DNA of 17,733 nucleotides from a virus (IMGVR_UViG_3300014292_000013:1-17733), one strand, 5' to 3'. Counted from the stretch's first letter, positions 3,586 to 15,779 are shown. A program made the numbers and translations. Notes: a model not told the origin generated them from the letters alone.

Positions 3586-3731
3586 AGTGAAATCATTTAG
3601 TCATTCATACCTGTTTGTATAAGGAAATGGTATTGGCAATGATAAAAAGAAGAGTAACTCAAATTTTTTAATTATAAGATAAAAGTTTTAAGTCCTCTAG
3701 TCAGATAGTAGAGGCAAAATAAGGAGTAATT

Positions 3732-4163
3732 ATGAACAACTTTAGTTTAATCAAAGGGTACGTATCCCGCAAAACAACTACTTTCCATCCAGCACGTGAT
3801 GGTAAAAAAGCTGTATTTAGCACAACTATCGCAGTAGCAACTGGCACAGTTGATGGCGAAGGTAAGAAAGTATATAACTGGGTACCAGTTAAATCCTTCG
3901 GTAAAACAGCTGAATTGATGAATGAAAATCTTGTTGGTGGTGATTACACAGAAATCACTGGTCGTTTGGGTATGAACCCACGTTATACCAATAAGAAAGG
4001 CGAAACAGTTTATGAAACTTGTTTCTTGGTAGCAACACAATTCTCTCGTTTGACTCAACGCGAAACTCCAAAAGCAACTGAAGTAGCTCAAGAAGAAGTT
4101 GAAAACTTTGCAGGAGCACCAGAAGTGTTCGGCGAAGAATTAGAAGGTGCAACAATTTTTTAA
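3732..4163 (+). CDS. ssb: Single-stranded DNA-binding protein
   Basis: The OB-fold pattern is present (NNFSLIKGYV..., AVFSTTIAV, WVPVKSFGKTAELMNENLVGGDYTEITGRLGMNPRYTNKKGETVYETCFLVA). The C-terminal tail is acidic and ends in ...EELEGATIF. The RBS is a strong AAGGAG. Confidence 0.75.
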   Translation: MNNFSLIKGYVSRKTTTFHPARDGKKAVFSTTIAVATGTVDGEGKKVYNWVPVKSFGKTAELMNENLVGGDYTEITGRLGMNPRYTNKKGETVYETCFLVATQFSRLTQRETPKATEVAQEEVENFAGAPEVFGEELEGATIF

Positions 4164-4184
4164 TTTAATTTAAACTAACATAAG

Positions 4185-4240
4185 AAAAATCATACATGAA
4201 CCACTGGCGTGAAGAGATGTATGATTTTTCTTTTTTTTGT
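4185..4240 (+). terminator. Rho-independent terminator after ssb
   Basis: The stem AAAATCATACAT/ATGTATGATTTT pairs 4185-4197 with 4217-4229. CTTTTTTTT follows. Confidence 0.7.
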
Positions 4241-4270
4241 TTTTTAACTTGAGTTAAAAAATATTTTTAG

Positions 4271-4299
4271 TTGAAATTAAAAAACAAAAGTGTTATAAC
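4271..4299 (+). promoter_or_regulatory. Sigma70-type promoter (TTGAAA, 17-nt spacer, TGtTATAAC)
   Basis: -35 TTGAAA at 4271-4276. The extended -10 has TG at 4291-4292 and TATAAC at 4294-4299. Confidence 0.5.
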
Positions 4300-4326
4300 A
4301 TTTTTTTAACGAAAGGAATTTTAATT

Positions 4327-4713
4327 ATGAAAGAAAATTATTCATTAGAAGAAATCGTAGAAACATTAGCTAAATTTAAAGAAGTTATGAATTATGTGCG
4401 TCAAAATCATGGCGTATGGGACAGCACTGTACAAGAATGTGATAAAGCATTTGGTGATATTCGTCATTATTGTGAACTACAATATCCTACACAACGTAGA
4501 GATAAAACAAAAGTAGTTCGTTTAATTCATGATTTTTCTGTTAAACGTCGTGAATGTAAAGATTATCTTGAAGTCTTGGCTCCATTATTTGAAAGTAATT
4601 TGGTTGAAGAAAAACAATTGATGAATGTCAATCGTATTATTAATCAAATTAAAAAGAACCAAGAGAAAAATCGTGCGTATAAACCTCGTGTATTAGAAGA
4701 TTTATTTAAGTAA
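4327..4713 (+). CDS. Hypothetical phage protein (128 aa)
   Basis: Long ORF with the RBS context TTAACGAAAGGA 9 nt upstream of the ATG. No family recognised. Confidence 0.7.
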   Translation: MKENYSLEEIVETLAKFKEVMNYVRQNHGVWDSTVQECDKAFGDIRHYCELQYPTQRRDKTKVVRLIHDFSVKRRECKDYLEVLAPLFESNLVEEKQLMNVNRIINQIKKNQEKNRAYKPRVLEDLFK

Positions 4714-4757
4714 TATAAATTTTCGTGTTATTTTTTAATTAGAAAAGAGGTGTTTAT

Positions 4758-4865
4758 ATGAAATTTTTAGTTAATCTATTAAAAAAAGTTGCACCAAAAT
4801 GTATTATGTGCCATAATAAAATAGAATTAGAAATCTTGGAAGCACGTCTTGCTTTAGATGAATAA
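4758..4865 (+). CDS. Small hypothetical protein (35 aa)
   Basis: An AAGAGGTG RBS precedes the ATG. The product is MKFLVNLLKKVAPKCIMCHNKIELEILEARLALDE. Confidence 0.35.
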   Translation: MKFLVNLLKKVAPKCIMCHNKIELEILEARLALDE

Positions 4866-4886
4866 TACGAAAGGACATTTTTTAAA

Positions 4887-5180
4887 ATGGCAGATACATA
4901 TTTTGTAAATGACTACGCTCTTAAAGACGCTGCGGAACTACGCAAAGAAACTGAAGAGCGAATTAAAAAAGCAGTAGAACGTATCGTTAAAATTTTGTAT
5001 AAAGCGATTACAACTGCGGCAGAGAAAAATGAATTTGAAGTTACGAGTACATTAGATTTAAGCTTCGACCATGATTTGGATAGAGCTACAGTTGAAGGTG
5101 TAAAAACAGAATTAATCAATAAAGGTTATACTGTTACTTACGAAACTGAAGACCATAATGTATGGAAAGTGACTTGGTAG
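4887..5180 (+). CDS. Hypothetical phage protein (97 aa)
   Basis: ORF with the RBS ACGAAAGGA. A terminator lies downstream. Confidence 0.7.
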   Translation: MADTYFVNDYALKDAAELRKETEERIKKAVERIVKILYKAITTAAEKNEFEVTSTLDLSFDHDLDRATVEGVKTELINKGYTVTYETEDHNVWKVTW

Positions 5181-7987: not shown

Positions 7988-8721
7988 ATTTTTATTACAA
8001 TGGCGATGAATCAGTTCAAACATACGAAGCGGAATTTACATTAGAAATTAAAAACGACTATTACAAAGGTCATGGTACTGTCGATAAAGATAGCATTAAA
8101 ACTTTATATACTAAATTAATCGAAGATGGCAATTATGATGCCGAATTTAATTTAATTGATATAGAAGAACATGAAGGCTTTACAGTGATTAAATATGAAT
8201 CTACTGATTATATTGACGGTTCTTTCTTATTATTCGATTTAGTTTGTGAAGTGCCTAAAGATGTTTATACATATTTTATTTGTTCTCCTAGTTTTGATTT
8301 TTATTATAAGCATGTTGGTAAAAATTCTTTACCGTTTTCTTCTCGTTATTTAGTCTATACAGCTCATAATGGCAGTTATATTTTGTGTGATGATTATAAA
8401 GAAACCATTGGCAAATTAGAAGAAGTAGCACAACGTATTCTTCACGAAGGTGCTTCGTTTACTAAAGATGCGATTTTAATTTCTAAAATTGATAGTGGCG
8501 ATAATAAAGACTTTAATGACTTATTAGACGATTACAAAACGTATGATGTAATGCGTGAAAATATTAATTTTGCGGCTAAACAAGATAGTCCAGAAGAAAT
8601 CATTAAAATGCTTCGTAGTCAATTTGGCGACAATATGGAAATTGTCTTCATTGATGAAGAAACTGGTAAACGTATTGGTGGTCCAAATAAAGAAAAAAAA
8701 GATAATAAAAAATTATCTTAG
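7981..8721 (+). CDS. Hypothetical acidic phage protein (246 aa)
   Basis: ORF with a strong AAGGAG RBS. Its start overlaps the upstream gene's end. Confidence 0.7.
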   Translation: MLNFYYNGDESVQTYEAEFTLEIKNDYYKGHGTVDKDSIKTLYTKLIEDGNYDAEFNLIDIEEHEGFTVIKYESTDYIDGSFLLFDLVCEVPKDVYTYFICSPSFDFYYKHVGKNSLPFSSRYLVYTAHNGSYILCDDYKETIGKLEEVAQRILHEGASFTKDAILISKIDSGDNKDFNDLLDDYKTYDVMRENINFAAKQDSPEEIIKMLRSQFGDNMEIVFIDEETGKRIGGPNKEKKDNKKLS

Positions 8722-8778
8722 GTAATATAAAGGACGGTAGTTTATTTTAATCTTCCTCCTCCTTTGTATAATATATAA

Positions 8779-8910
8779 TAAAACTACTTGTGTAAAAAAA
8801 AGTGATGAGATATAATGTACATAGAGTATTCTATGTAATACAAAAATCTCCTCATTTTGCACACAAAAAAGATGGTTATTCTGAGCAGCGACAGAATAGC
8901 CATCTTTTTT
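8779..8910 (+). ncRNA. Promoter-hairpin-terminator module: short RNA or transcription-attenuating leader
   Basis: Two promoter candidates are present: TATAAT at 8767-8772, and TTGTGT, 17-nt spacer, TATAAT at 8788-8816. A long imperfect hairpin pairs 8788-8811 with 8846-8866 and has an inner 7-bp hairpin (8818-8824/8831-8837). A 13-bp terminator stem pairs 8871-8883 with 8892-8904 and is followed by TTTTTT. Confidence 0.35.
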
Positions 8911-8935
8911 ATTTATATCAGAAAGGAATTTAAAA

Positions 8936-9118
8936 ATGAGTGAACATATTGGCACTATATTAGCAATTATTTTTGTTGTATTATTTTTGTTAGGGAAATC
9001 ATCTTTAAGATTTTTTAATGATGAACATAAAATTGGGATTCGATATAGTTTTAGATTGTTTTTTGAAGAACCAGATAGCCCACATAGCTTTAAATTTGAA
9101 ATTATATGGAGCAAATAA
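8936..9118 (+). CDS. Small membrane protein (60 aa)
   Basis: GAAAGGA RBS. The N-terminal hydrophobic segment is IGTILAIIFVVLFLLG. Confidence 0.5.
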   Translation: MSEHIGTILAIIFVVLFLLGKSSLRFFNDEHKIGIRYSFRLFFEEPDSPHSFKFEIIWSK

Positions 9119-9121
9119 AAC

Positions 9122-9424
9122 ATGAAAAAGAAATTAATTAAAGTATATATTAGAGACCTACAGTTTGATATCCCAGATGTGTCTTTAGAAAAAATAGAAG
9201 AATTATATAAGCAATTACAATGGTCAGAAGCTAGAGATAATTCTGTACATGAAGTGATTAAAAAAATACAAACTTTACAATCAACAATTGAAATATTAAA
9301 AGAACAAATTCAAGAATTAAATGATAGAAAAATAGAATTAGAAAATTTAGTATATGTAAATGGTGAAATAAAAACATACGCAGATATCTTGTCAGAAATC
9401 GAAAAAGATGCTAAGATTAAATAG
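9122..9424 (+). CDS. Hypothetical coiled-coil protein (100 aa)
   Basis: ORF with heptad-like sequence (IQTLQSTIEILKEQIQELNDRKIELENL). Confidence 0.6.
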   Translation: MKKKLIKVYIRDLQFDIPDVSLEKIEELYKQLQWSEARDNSVHEVIKKIQTLQSTIEILKEQIQELNDRKIELENLVYVNGEIKTYADILSEIEKDAKIK

Positions 9425-9462
9425 TAACTTTTCTCTGATTTTAACGAAAGGATATTTGTAAA

Positions 9463-9861
9463 ATGGAAGATATTATTAACCAACCAAAACATTATACTCA
9501 TGGAGGTATTGAGGTACGTCCATTTATCAATTCTCAGGGTTATAATTTTGATATGGGCAATGTTATTAAATATATTGTGCGTGCAGGTATTAAAACACCA
9601 GATAAGTTAATTGACTTAGAAAAAGCATTAAACTATATCAATGATGAAATTAAAAAAGGCAATAAAAAATTACATTTTGAGCCAACAAGTATTTTCATTT
9701 CTGGCTATGAATTTATTAGAAGCCAACCACATTTAACAGATAACCTTAAAAATGTCATTTCTTTATTATCTAAAGATGAAAAAACAGACTGTATTTTAAT
9801 GGCAGAAGTAATTTCTGCACGAGATTTGTTGCAAGAAGAAATTAACATGTTAAAGATTTAA
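9463..9861 (+). CDS. DUF3310-like phage protein
   Basis: The N-terminal pattern INQPKHYTHGGIEVRPFI...NFDMGNVIKYIVRAG...IDLEKALNYI resembles the conserved phage DUF3310 signature (HY..GIE, GN.IKY..R, DL.KA..Y). The RBS context is TTAACGAAAGGA. Confidence 0.65.
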   Translation: MEDIINQPKHYTHGGIEVRPFINSQGYNFDMGNVIKYIVRAGIKTPDKLIDLEKALNYINDEIKKGNKKLHFEPTSIFISGYEFIRSQPHLTDNLKNVISLLSKDEKTDCILMAEVISARDLLQEEINMLKI

Positions 9862-11788: not shown

Positions 11789-11880
11789 TGATTAGTTTGA
11801 TTTTTTTCGGAATGATAACTGTAGTTATCGGTATTTATGGTGCTAAATTTATTAATAAAATTAGAGGTATCGAAAAATAA
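11788..11880 (+). CDS. Small single-TM peptide (30 aa)
   Basis: TAATG overlaps occur at both ends (11786-11790 and 11878-11882), which suggests translational coupling. The product is MISLIFFGMITVVIGIYGAKFINKIRGIEK. Confidence 0.4.
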   Translation: MISLIFFGMITVVIGIYGAKFINKIRGIEK

Positions 11881-12146
11881 TGACACAAGATATTTTAATT
11901 TTACTTGCAGTAGTAGCCATGTCTTGTATGGCTACTATCTGCTTCATTGTCCACCAAGTATTCGCAACGCGTCGTATGCGTATTGAGTATGATGGTGGTT
12001 ATACAGAAGAAGAAATTGAACAAATTGTAGTAAAAAAATTTAGATTATTAGCTTCTAGTCAATCATTAGAGCCTGGTAATTTTATTTACACTACAACTAC
12101 GAAAGAAACCAATAAAGAACCTAAAACAACAAAAGGGAGAAAATGA
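11880..12146 (+). CDS. Small membrane protein (88 aa)
   Basis: N-terminal TM segment ILILLAVVAMSCMATICFIV. It is coupled to both neighbouring genes. Confidence 0.6.
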   Translation: MTQDILILLAVVAMSCMATICFIVHQVFATRRMRIEYDGGYTEEEIEQIVVKKFRLLASSQSLEPGNFIYTTTTKETNKEPKTTKGRK

Positions 12147-12628
12147 TGTTCAAATATGTAGTTGGAAATATTTTAGATACAGAATGTAAGTATATTCTAA
12201 ATCCAGTTAATTGTGTTGGCACAATGGGTAAAGGGTTAGCTTTACAAATTGCTAAGGCATACCCTGAATCTGTTGAACCATACAAAGAAGATTGCAAAAA
12301 AGATTTATTAAATATTGGTCAATTAACTAGCTTTAAAGCTAAAAATGGTAAAACCATTATTCATTTTCCAACTAAGTATCATTGGAAAAATCCATCTAAA
12401 TATAGTTATATTGAAGCTGGATTAGAAAATTTAGCTTACCACATTAAACATAGTGGTAACGAAACATCATATTTAAGCTTCGCAATTCCTCCACTAGGTT
12501 GTGGATTAGGCGGATTAAATTATGATTTTGTTCATGAATTAATCCAAACTATTTTAAGTAAATTTAAAACTATTACATTCGAATTATATGTGACACAAGA
12601 ATGGTATGATGCACATGTACATTGCTAA
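12143..12628 (+). CDS. Stand-alone macrodomain protein, DarG/TARG1-like ADP-ribosyl hydrolase
   Basis: The motifs NPVNCVGTMGKGLALQ, HFPTKYHWKNPSKYSYIEAGL and IPPLGCGLGGL match the DarG-type macrodomain pattern (VNCVGVMGKGIALQ / NFPTKKHW / PPLGVGNGGL), including the catalytic-loop lysine. At 161 aa it has no C-terminal DarT-binding extension. Confidence 0.85.
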   Translation: MMFKYVVGNILDTECKYILNPVNCVGTMGKGLALQIAKAYPESVEPYKEDCKKDLLNIGQLTSFKAKNGKTIIHFPTKYHWKNPSKYSYIEAGLENLAYHIKHSGNETSYLSFAIPPLGCGLGGLNYDFVHELIQTILSKFKTITFELYVTQEWYDAHVHC

Positions 12629-12703: not shown

Positions 12704-13213
12704 ATGAATGAACAAACTCAACAAGAAGAACATATTATTATTGACTTAGATAATTTAGTGTTACCTAGATGTCGATTTGAAATAGTATCTTCTTATAAAG
12801 ACAAAAACATTAATTTACCGACACGCAAAACATCTGGGTCCGCTGGTTATGATATTGAGGCTGCGGAAGATGTTATTATTAAACCACATTCTTCCACTGC
12901 TGTACCTACTGGTATTAAAGCATATATGGACGAATGTTTAGTATTGAAAATTTATATTCGCTCTTCATTGGCATTTAAACGTGGATTGATGCTAACTAAC
13001 TCTACAGGTATTATCGATAGCGATTTCTATAATAATGAAGACAACGAAGGACATATTCTTGTAGGTTTGTATAATACTACAGATAAAGAAATTATGATTA
13101 AGAAAGGAGAACGTATTGCTCAAGGTATTTTCGAAGCCTACATTATAACGGAAAACGACGCAGAACAAGAAAAAGAAGTTCGAACTGGAGGCATTGGTTC
13201 TACCGGGAAATAA
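12704..13213 (+). CDS. dut: dUTP diphosphatase (trimeric dUTPase)
   Basis: The canonical motifs are present: GSAGYDI, RSSLAFKRG, GIIDSDFY, GERIAQ and the C-terminal RTGGIGSTGK. Confidence 0.9.
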   Translation: MNEQTQQEEHIIIDLDNLVLPRCRFEIVSSYKDKNINLPTRKTSGSAGYDIEAAEDVIIKPHSSTAVPTGIKAYMDECLVLKIYIRSSLAFKRGLMLTNSTGIIDSDFYNNEDNEGHILVGLYNTTDKEIMIKKGERIAQGIFEAYIITENDAEQEKEVRTGGIGSTGK

Positions 13214-13231
13214 TACGTTTTATAAATAAAA

Positions 13232-13426
13232 ATGGACTACATTAAATTAATGGGAGATAGCGAAGATTGGACACAAGATATTGTTCAAGACTTCGTTGAC
13301 TCTCATAATAATTCTATGGAATTTTTGCTCAGAGAAATTAATGAAAAAGAATCAGATATGTTATATGAATATTATATTGACCAAATGTATAAGGAATTTC
13401 AACAATCTGGTCAAATTCCATTTTAA
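13232..13426 (+). CDS. Small highly acidic protein (64 aa)
   Basis: ORF with a weak RBS and a D/E-rich sequence. Confidence 0.5.
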   Translation: MDYIKLMGDSEDWTQDIVQDFVDSHNNSMEFLLREINEKESDMLYEYYIDQMYKEFQQSGQIPF

Positions 13427-13445
13427 TTGTTAGAAAGATATAAAT

Positions 13446-13886
13446 ATGAAAATTCAAAATATTTTAGATAGAAAATTTTGGTGTAAACAAAATTTAATTT
13501 CTATTTTAATTGCAATTATTTTCGGTGTTATTTTTGATTTATTAAAAGTTTGGAATACAGTATACGCATATTATTTAATTGGCTTAGTATTCGTATATCA
13601 AATTTTTATCACATATTTAACACATAAAACAAGACAAGAAATTTGTAATATTCTGGATAAAAAGATATGGTATATATCATTATATAATATTGACATCGAA
13701 GATTTAAAATATTATTTAAAAAGCAATGCCACTTTTTGTTTAGTTGTATTTGCTACTATTATCATAGATTTAATTTTATTGAAATTAGATATTGATATGT
13801 TCAATACTATATATATTATCTTTTCAGTATTTTCTACATCTTATTTGTTAGACCAAATTGCAATTAAAAATATTTTAAAGAAATAA
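13446..13886 (+). CDS. Multi-pass membrane protein (146 aa)
   Basis: About four hydrophobic segments (LISILIAIIFGVIFDLL, YYLIGLVFVYQIFITYL, FCLVVFATIIIDLILL, IYIIFSVFSTSYLL). Confidence 0.6.
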   Translation: MKIQNILDRKFWCKQNLISILIAIIFGVIFDLLKVWNTVYAYYLIGLVFVYQIFITYLTHKTRQEICNILDKKIWYISLYNIDIEDLKYYLKSNATFCLVVFATIIIDLILLKLDIDMFNTIYIIFSVFSTSYLLDQIAIKNILKK

Positions 13887-13905
13887 ATAAAGGAAATAGA
13901 TAAAA

Positions 13906-14358
13906 ATGAAACTTACATTTTTTGAAAAAGCCGTATTAGAAAAAGCGTATGAAAATGGATTGCGTTTTTTTATACGTGTAAATGAAAAAGATATTTTATT
14001 TGTTGAAAGAAATCCAAAAGATACAGTACGTTTAGATTCCATCGAAACAATCTTAGATAATATTGATAGCATTATCGAAAAAACAGAATGTATTTCAGAT
14101 TTTGGTGATTTTAAATTTGCTAATATTCAAGATGTTATTTCTATTGAAAAAACTCTTGGTAAAATTGATTGGACTAAAGTTAAAAAAGATACTCTTGTTA
14201 AAGTGCGTTCATTGAATGGTACAGAACATTTCCGTTATCTCTGTCGTAAAATTGATAATGTCCATGGTATCGAAGTATATCCATTTGGCACAACTTCTTT
14301 GACAGCACCTAATGAAGATACAGAAGTATATTACGATTTTGAATTGATAGAAAAATAA
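13906..14358 (+). CDS. Hypothetical phage protein (150 aa)
   Basis: ORF with an AAGGA RBS. Confidence 0.7.
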   Translation: MKLTFFEKAVLEKAYENGLRFFIRVNEKDILFVERNPKDTVRLDSIETILDNIDSIIEKTECISDFGDFKFANIQDVISIEKTLGKIDWTKVKKDTLVKVRSLNGTEHFRYLCRKIDNVHGIEVYPFGTTSLTAPNEDTEVYYDFELIEK

Positions 14359-15440: not shown

Positions 15441-15532
15441 GGAAGCTTACTCAAGTGGATTAAGAGACTAGTCTTGAAAACTAGGAGGCGGTTAATAGCC
15501 GTGCCAGAGTTCGAATCTCTGAGCTTCCGCCA
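15441..15532 (+). tRNA. tRNA-Ser (anticodon UGA), class II, CCA encoded
   Basis: Acceptor GGAAGCT/AGCTTCC. Anticodon stem CTAGT/ACTAG with loop CTTGAAA. Long variable arm. T-arm CAGAG-TTCGAAT-CTCTG. Discriminator G followed by CCA. Confidence 0.9.
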
Positions 15533-15533
15533 T

Positions 15534-15619
15534 GGTAAAGTACCCAAGTTGGATAAAGGGAGCAGACTGTAAATCTGTCGCTTATAGCTTCGAAGGTTCG
15601 AATCCTTCCTTTACCACCA
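15534..15619 (+). tRNA. tRNA-Tyr (anticodon GUA), class II, CCA encoded
   Basis: Acceptor GGTAAAG/CTTTACC. Anticodon loop CTGTAAA. Long variable arm. T-arm GAAGG-TTCGAAT-CCTTC. ACCA at the 3' end. Confidence 0.9.
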
Positions 15620-15624
15620 TTTAT

Positions 15625-15700
15625 AGCGGAGTAGAGCAGTTGGTAGCTCATCGGGCTCATAACCCGAAGGTCACAAGTTCAAATCTTGTCTCCGCAACCA
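15625..15700 (+). tRNA. Initiator-type tRNA-fMet (anticodon CAU), CCA encoded
   Basis: It closely resembles the E. coli initiator tRNA as recalled from memory. The anticodon stem TCGGG/CCCGA carries three consecutive G-C pairs next to the loop CTCATAA. Positions 1 and 72 are unpaired (A1 x A72). The 3' end is ...CTCCGCAACCA. Confidence 0.85.
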
Positions 15701-15703
15701 CAT

Positions 15704-15779
15704 GCTGGCGTAGCTCAATAGGTAGAGCGGTTGACTTGTAATCAACAGGTTGTGGGTTCAATTCCTATCGCCAGCTCCA
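15704..15779 (+). tRNA. tRNA-Thr (anticodon UGU), CCA encoded
   Basis: Acceptor GCTGGCG/CGCCAGC. D-arm GCTC-AATAGGTA-GAGC. Anticodon stem GTTGA/TCAAC with loop CTTGTAA. TCCA at the 3' end. Confidence 0.9.

Follow-up and report, generated by a model that had tools for sequence, protein, structure and literature searches.

The isolated macrodomain of DarG suffices as an antitoxin (Jankevicius et al. 2016, PMC5179494; PDB 5M31, 5M3E and 5M3I), and stand-alone macrodomains that counter DarTG2 have been described in two phages. Phage PhiKZ encodes a stand-alone DarG2-like macrodomain, gp104, named AdfM, an abbreviation of anti-DarT factor macro (Morgan et al., Cell Rep 2026, PMC13309987). PhiKZ AdfM strips the ADP-ribose placed by DarT2 from a TNTC oligonucleotide and fully rescues DarT2 toxicity; it is imported into the phage nucleus and is needed by PhiKZ to resist DarTG2 (PMC13309987). 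Similarly, Tk.4 of phage T4, also named AdfM, was identified as the sole gene required for DarTG2 resistance, and T4 knocked out for Tk.4 becomes sensitive to DarTG2 (HIDEN-SEQ, Nat Microbiol 2026, PMC13716836). Two further phage factors act on DarTG by other routes: AdfN is an orphan NADAR antitoxin directed against DarTG1 (Johannesman et al., Nat Commun 2025, PMC11825919), and AdfB of ICP1 works by binding DarT. A first-pass annotation of the locus described here had proposed that its free DarG-like macrodomain is an anti-DarTG factor. As an idea this is already published for PhiKZ gp104, by experiment, and for T4 Tk.4, by genetics, and is not new here; for the present protein it gains support from a full-length homology to PhiKZ AdfM (37% identity, residues 1–159 against 1–162, E 1e-34 in BLASTP, the gp104 sequence being translated from that printed in PMC13309987).

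The window, meaning the whole stretch of DNA analysed (17,733 nucleotides), constitutes the entire IMG/VR record of an uncultivated phage of ~233 kb and has a CheckV completeness of 8%. Macrodomain orthologues at 71–99% identity sit on contigs of 228–237 kb. Four complete relatives (G004–G007; CheckV 100%, three of them with direct terminal repeats) were available, two of them IMG/VR records of the window clade (231,856 and 236,114 bp) and two belonging to a second phage clade (~229.8 kb) whose macrodomain is 45–47% identical to the window protein. Each of the four carries exactly one macrodomain. Among GenBank phages no relative was retrieved, either by nucleotide search or by a search with the 596-aa protein encoded at the end of the window. 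The features that compose the locus are as follows.

11880–12146, + strand: gene of 88 aa with a hydrophobic N-terminus, a predicted small membrane protein (ORF list and sequence)
12135–12139, + strand: Shine-Dalgarno-like GGGAG, read from the sequence, 3 nt from the ATG at 12143 and 6 nt from the ATG at 12146
12143–12628, + strand: AdfM-like stand-alone DarG2-type macrodomain gene, as predicted from the ORF, its translation and profile and fold matches
12704–13213, + strand: dUTPase gene (PHROG 135, 3.9e-46), 75 nt 3' of the macrodomain gene

The macrodomain ORF is uninterrupted from the ATG at 12143 to the TAA stop at 12626–12628 and encodes 161 aa. The three motifs by which it had originally been recognised are all present exactly: NPVNCVGTMGKGLALQ occupies residues 20–35, letter for letter, FPTKYHW residues 75–81 and PPLGCGLGGL residues 116–125. 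The start is more likely the second ATG (12146), giving a product of 160 aa, than the ATG at 12143, because the GGGAG element then lies at a spacing of 6 nt instead of 3 nt and because all macrodomain relatives begin with MFKY, the N-terminus that corresponds to this second ATG. Scanning for promoters and terminators near the gene returned nothing above the shuffled expectation.

The family match of the product is far above chance in Pfam, PADLOC and NCBIfam. Pfam Macro is matched at E 4.3e-15, the PADLOC DarG profile at 3.1e-50 (profile positions 1–148 of 329 only) and the NCBIfam DarG model NF048014 at 1.4e-48 (positions 2–152 of 338 only), the DarG-specific profiles covering residues 2–155 of the protein. 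The score on NF048014 ('antitoxin DarG') is 165.9 bits against an equivalog cut-off of 250 bits and falls below it because the C-terminal DarT-binding half is missing, as the first-pass annotation had recognised. The genuine full-length DarGs P0137, P0149 and P0152 score 320–383 bits and pass the cut-off, and the proven PhiKZ AdfM, with 137.8 bits, scores below the window protein. By this measure the window protein lacks the full-length DarG architecture, a macrodomain plus a C-terminal DarT-binding domain, and it has the size of a single macrodomain (~150–165 aa) devoid of the DarG C-terminal domain. With full-length DarGs scoring above the NCBIfam cut-off it shares 43–49% identity.

Comparison with known structures leads to the same assignment. 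The best PDB matches by sequence are the macrodomains of Mycobacterium tuberculosis DarG (5m3i, 3.6e-28) and Thermus aquaticus DarG (5m31, 6.8e-27), followed by the Thermosipho DarT-DarG fusion (7omu), while TARG1 reaches only 0.01. An AlphaFold2 model built from 62 homologues (pLDDT 94.9, pTM 0.90) displays one compact macro fold, whose top Foldseek match is again 5m3i (E 1.4e-17, TM 0.85, rmsd 1.6 Å), ahead of 5m3e/5m31 and the Thermosipho DarTG 7omu and then TARG1 (TM ~0.77). The profile and Foldseek results thus agree with the earlier placement in the DarG/TARG1 clade, DarG coming ahead of TARG1, and keep the protein apart from the O-acetyl-ADP-ribose deacetylases: the YmdB/MacroD-type model NF001666 reaches 39.5 bits where 246 are required, and no MacroD or YmdB structure ranks with the best PDB matches by sequence or by fold. 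Judged from sequence and model, the window protein is a predicted DarG2-type macrodomain with no further domain.

The residues on which DarG catalysis depends are retained. In T. aquaticus DarG, the catalytic lysine is K80 and the K80A mutant has no activity, mutation of N22, K29 or G119 has marked effects, and H82 and W83 line the entrance, with W83 proposed to stack on the thymine (PMC5179494). In the HMMER alignment and in an alignment of 201 sequences, N22, K29, K80 and G119 of T. aquaticus DarG correspond to N23, K30, K78 and G121 of the window protein; likewise, H82 and W83 align with H80 and W81, and G117 and G121 with G119 and G123. The lysine of FPTKYHW, which had been annotated as catalytic, is therefore the equivalent of K80. 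The residues N23, K30, K78, G121, H80 and W81, and also G119 and G123, are invariant in 18 members of the window clade. Three ligand-contact positions differ from T. aquaticus DarG, where T20 is replaced by P21, V31 by L32 and N120 by L122, and the same three positions also differ from M. tuberculosis DarG. PhiKZ AdfM shares just L32 of the three states. Across the 201 aligned macrodomains, Pro/Leu/Leu is common in short stand-alone homologues and Thr/Ile/Asn in full-length DarGs, a leucine at the N120 position being found also in 4 of 21 full-length DarGs. From this distribution, Pro/Leu/Leu at the positions of T20, V31 and N120 may be a signature of the short stand-alone subfamily.

The wider family is large and mixed in architecture. 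Among 1.84 billion representatives searched exhaustively with HMMER, 8,380 match at E <= 0.001, and tblastn matches occur in 707 GenBank phage records, all below 60% identity, including phiKZ-like, rV5-like, T4-like and PAK_P1-like phages. The nearest proteins outside the clade are 40–50% identical and comprise both stand-alone forms of ~150 aa and forms of ~350 aa, several of which pass the DarG equivalog cut-off (P0137, P0149 and P0152). In a maximum-likelihood tree of 201 macrodomains, in which 105 of 198 branches, including most of the deep ones, are unsupported, the window clade is monophyletic (SH-aLRT 99) and groups, with moderate support (75–89), with other short stand-alone forms that include the second 229-kb phage clade. 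Throughout this tree, stand-alone forms are interleaved with full-length DarG forms, and no donor lineage of the macrodomain can be named from it.

The window protein is probably an eraser of the AdfM type, which would remove thymidine-linked ADP-ribose from phage ssDNA in counter-defence against DarT2-type toxins. The grounds for this reading are the fold, the clade, the conserved catalytic residues, the stand-alone architecture, purifying selection and the lack of DarT in complete relatives; the enzymatic activity, the specificity for DNA thymidine and the identity of the host defence are inferred. In the mechanism proposed by analogy with its homologues, the phage would make the free DarG2-like macrodomain, an orphan antitoxin, during infection, when a host DarT2-type toxin, released on infection, would ADP-ribosylate thymidines in phage ssDNA and block replication or packaging. 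The glycine-rich loop G119–G124 would bind the ADP-ribose and K78 would cleave the thymidine-ribose bond, helped by N23 and K30 and with W81 positioned for stacking onto the base, a cleavage that would restore unmodified phage DNA. Since the DarG C-terminal domain is missing, the window protein would erase the mark only and would not bind the toxin.

A different or broader target for the same hydrolase, the principal alternative, is unlikely, though credible. Under this alternative the substrate would be protein- or RNA-linked ADP-ribose, placed by another ADP-ribosyltransferase defence, for example one that ADP-ribosylates mRNA, or by a phage enzyme that has escaped recognition. This would account for the presence of P21, L32 and L122 where full-length DarGs mostly display Thr/Ile/Asn, and it draws on TARG1, the next-best fold match, which acts on proteins, and on the fact that macrodomains of this clade can be multi-substrate. 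However, a leucine at the N120 position is also compatible with a genuine full-length DarG, as the 4 of 21 noted above indicate, and the DarG-specific catalytic and base-stacking residues K78, N23, H80 and W81 are all kept, while TARG1 has an alanine at the position of the tryptophan. In addition, the E-value to DarG is ~26 orders of magnitude better than that to TARG1. Searches of the relatives for the transferase families PF03496, PF01129 and PF00644 gave no match, which is weak evidence as they had no positive control, and DarT is likewise missing from the complete relatives. A partner ADP-ribosyltransferase of the phage was considered and has no support from these searches. NADAR, the anti-DarTG1 counterpart, was not found in the relatives. 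It is quite improbable that the stand-alone subgroup bearing P21, L32 and L122, many members of which lie on viral contigs, has evolved a substrate range unlike that of DarG2 and PhiKZ AdfM, such as another base, RNA or the product of a DarT-unrelated transferase; if so, the subgroup would represent a distinct anti-defence specificity and not another AdfM.

The alternative of a different target also draws on the host, DarT not having been found in the genomes searched of the sole candidate host family. The only host hint is that a related phage contig has been binned with an 'uncultured Gemella sp.' MAG. DarT was found in 0 of 40 genomes of the candidate host family, that of Gemella; since its occurrence in the candidate host class is sporadic (14 of 401 genomes), this is unremarkable and weak evidence. 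The contig concerned, USNF01000001.1 (L051/L052, G008), is a 208-kb relative of the jumbo phage that lies inside the species-representative 'Gemella' MAG UMGS1894 of 1.2 Mb; its amidase is 88% and its macrodomain 78% identical to those of the window phage. Phage DNA thus makes up part of this MAG and may affect its taxonomy or completeness. At positions 1–1791 the window holds an open-ended ORF of 596 aa with a weak match to a Hep_Hag-repeat protein, which could be an adhesin-like fibre; its best genome matches are a contig of an 'uncultured Gemella sp.' MAG (72%), probably phage DNA in its turn, and, weakly, a Veillonella MAG (33%). A search for close copies of the TnpB elements of the phage relatives found none in either of two genome sets, 40 from Gemellaceae and 61 from the family of the Veillonella MAG.

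A housekeeping or metabolite enzyme, acting on O-acetyl-ADP-ribose or ADP-ribose-1''-phosphate, or else a non-catalytic binder of ADP-ribose, is very improbable. This possibility is raised by names: PHROG 335 is labelled 'phosphatase', further database labels are 'Appr-1-p processing' and 'RNase III regulator', and homologues bear the source name 'O-acetyl-ADP-ribose deacetylase (regulator of RNase III)'. These are generic macrodomain annotations, and T4 Tk.4, which is anti-DarTG2, bears the same 'phosphatase' label. Yeast Poa1p is also matched, weakly (4e-5) and only over N-terminal residues 4–57. Against a metabolic role stands the low YmdB/MacroD-type score given above. A mere binder is also disfavoured by purifying selection on the catalytic residues, the macrodomain having a dN/dS of 0.12–0.26 against seven orthologues. 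The remaining point in favour of a metabolic role is that the gene adjoins the dUTPase, a gene of nucleotide metabolism, and it is weakened by an adjacency that is not conserved.

The neighbourhood of the macrodomain bears directly on this last point. The 88-aa gene, which has no Pfam or PHROG match, ends with a TGA stop at 12144–12146 that overlaps the macrodomain start (ATGATG), and it is kept 5' of the macrodomain in the relatives L004 and L052 and weakly in L009. Of the proposed translationally coupled operon, only the upstream gene overlaps the macrodomain gene; the dUTPase, 75 nt downstream, is not translationally coupled. The order membrane protein, macrodomain, dUTPase is retained only in the closest relatives, L004 and L052. 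In L006, L007 and L009, with macrodomains 75–82% identical, the dUTPase is not adjacent, and within 10 kb on either side only the macrodomain and one 105-aa gene are common with the window, the flanks being occupied by unknown ORFs and TnpB/IS605 elements. A functional module with the dUTPase is ruled out by this loss of adjacency together with the 75-nt gap, and the functional tie to the dUTPase and SSB neighbourhood that had been suggested falls with it, the SSB gene lying 8 kb upstream. Macrodomain identity stays at 71–84% across the clade even where the flanking genes differ. Judged by gene order, the macrodomain is conserved on its own and not as a member of a dUTPase module, because its flanks differ in L006, L007 and L009.

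Mobile elements are a feature of the region in its own right. In L004, a relative of 234.9 kb, a 202-aa HNH_3 homing-endonuclease gene splits the dUTPase into pieces of 108 and 64 aa (L004:10550–11990), whereas the window dUTPase is intact. A mobile intron may account for the split, or else a polymorphic insertion of a free-standing HEG. TnpB/IS605-family genes (OrfB_IS605 and Cas12f1-like TNB) occupy positions 3707–4969, 13179–14279 and 16464–17567 of L004, and further genes of the TnpB/IS605 family are located at 8222–9436 and 11823–13085 of L007. At the sites syntenic to these copies the window has no TnpB. Elsewhere in the window, positions 9463–9861 encode a 132-aa DUF3310 protein, 96% conserved in L004 and carrying the PHROG label 'nucleotide kinase'; the match is confined to its first ~70 residues and involves the C-terminal, DUF3310-like portion of most such kinase families. 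At 15441–15779 ARAGORN predicts four tightly clustered tRNA genes (Ser-TGA, Tyr-GTA, Met-CAT and Thr-TGT), as is typical of a large lytic phage.

No DarT gene adjoins the macrodomain, whose neighbours are the 88-aa membrane protein and the dUTPase, and no PF14487 match occurs anywhere in the window; in this respect the first-pass annotation was accurate. Since the window represents only ~8% of the genome, the claim that the macrodomain has no DarT partner cannot be judged from it, and the search was extended to complete relatives. Neither the four complete relatives nor a fifth that is 75% complete contains a match to DarT (PF14487), even at E <= 1. The same search finds DarT beside DarG in five of five bacterial genomes, picked for carrying a full-length DarG, and it is because these controls are positive that the negative result in the relatives is meaningful. 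For the window's own phage, 8% of whose genome is sampled, the absence of DarT rests on these relatives. An antitoxin of a resident DarTG pair with darT elsewhere in the genome, an option left by the small share of the genome in the window and by the presence of a macro-DarT fusion (P0140) among the homologues, is extremely improbable and largely refuted, given the DarT-free relatives, the control-validated search and the lack of a DarT-binding C-terminal domain in the window protein.

The phage lineage of the window differs in its setting from that of PhiKZ. A single-sequence query with PhiKZ chimallin, which very divergent shells could escape, found no match in the window clade, yet it matches another jumbo phage that carries a macrodomain. 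A chimallivirus setting, as for PhiKZ AdfM, is thus unsupported, and on this search the window phage is apparently non-nucleus-forming. The locus extends AdfM counter-defence, as proposed here, to an uncharted phage clade of ~233 kb and ~29% G+C with no detectable nucleus shell protein, known from metagenomes and with no cultured or GenBank relative. Because the macrodomain is among the few genes kept clade-wide in an otherwise fluid, transposon-ridden region, its retention suggests that these phages are under real selective pressure from DNA ADP-ribosylation. The protein adds no new mechanism; being highly DarG-like, it may prove useful as an enzyme for comparative biochemical work.

Among the described systems, the window protein shares its architecture with PhiKZ AdfM. 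Both are stand-alone proteins of ~160 aa with a DarG2-like fold, encoded by jumbo phages without DarT, and both display the catalytic lysine of FPTK, the catalytic asparagine (N23) and the following tryptophan. In contrast, PhiKZ AdfM has alanine where the window protein keeps K30 and G121, and asparagine in place of L122; it is imported into a phage nucleus, whereas no chimallin was detected in the complete relatives of the window clade, and its host and phage lineage are unrelated to those of the window phage with its ~29% G+C. T4 Tk.4 is likewise a stand-alone phage macrodomain (155 aa) with the generic 'phosphatase/A1pp' annotation, but it is only 26% identical to the window protein (E 1e-11) and has a tyrosine aligned with the FPTK lysine, which it lacks. 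Tk.4 is therefore a member of another macrodomain subgroup, and the window protein is much nearer to canonical DarG. Within DarTG2, the DarG2 proteins of T. aquaticus and M. tuberculosis provide the best sequence and structure matches, and the equivalents of K80, N22, K29 and G119 are kept; unlike the window protein, which is phage-encoded and has neither, they possess a C-terminal DarT-binding domain that mimics ssDNA and an adjacent DarT, and Thr/Ile/Asn is typical of DarG where the window protein has the P21, L32 and L122 of the stand-alone subfamily. TARG1 (C6orf130) belongs to the same macrodomain subclass, with an equivalent catalytic lysine and the second-best structure match, although it is only ~20% identical and is primarily a hydrolase of protein-linked ADP-ribose. 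At the position of the base-stacking tryptophan of DarG and the window protein, TARG1 has alanine (PMC5179494). AdfN offers the parallel of a phage that carries the enzymatic half of an antitoxin without its toxin and erases ADP-ribose from its own DNA, through an unrelated NADAR fold specific for the guanosine-linked ADP-ribose of DarT1.
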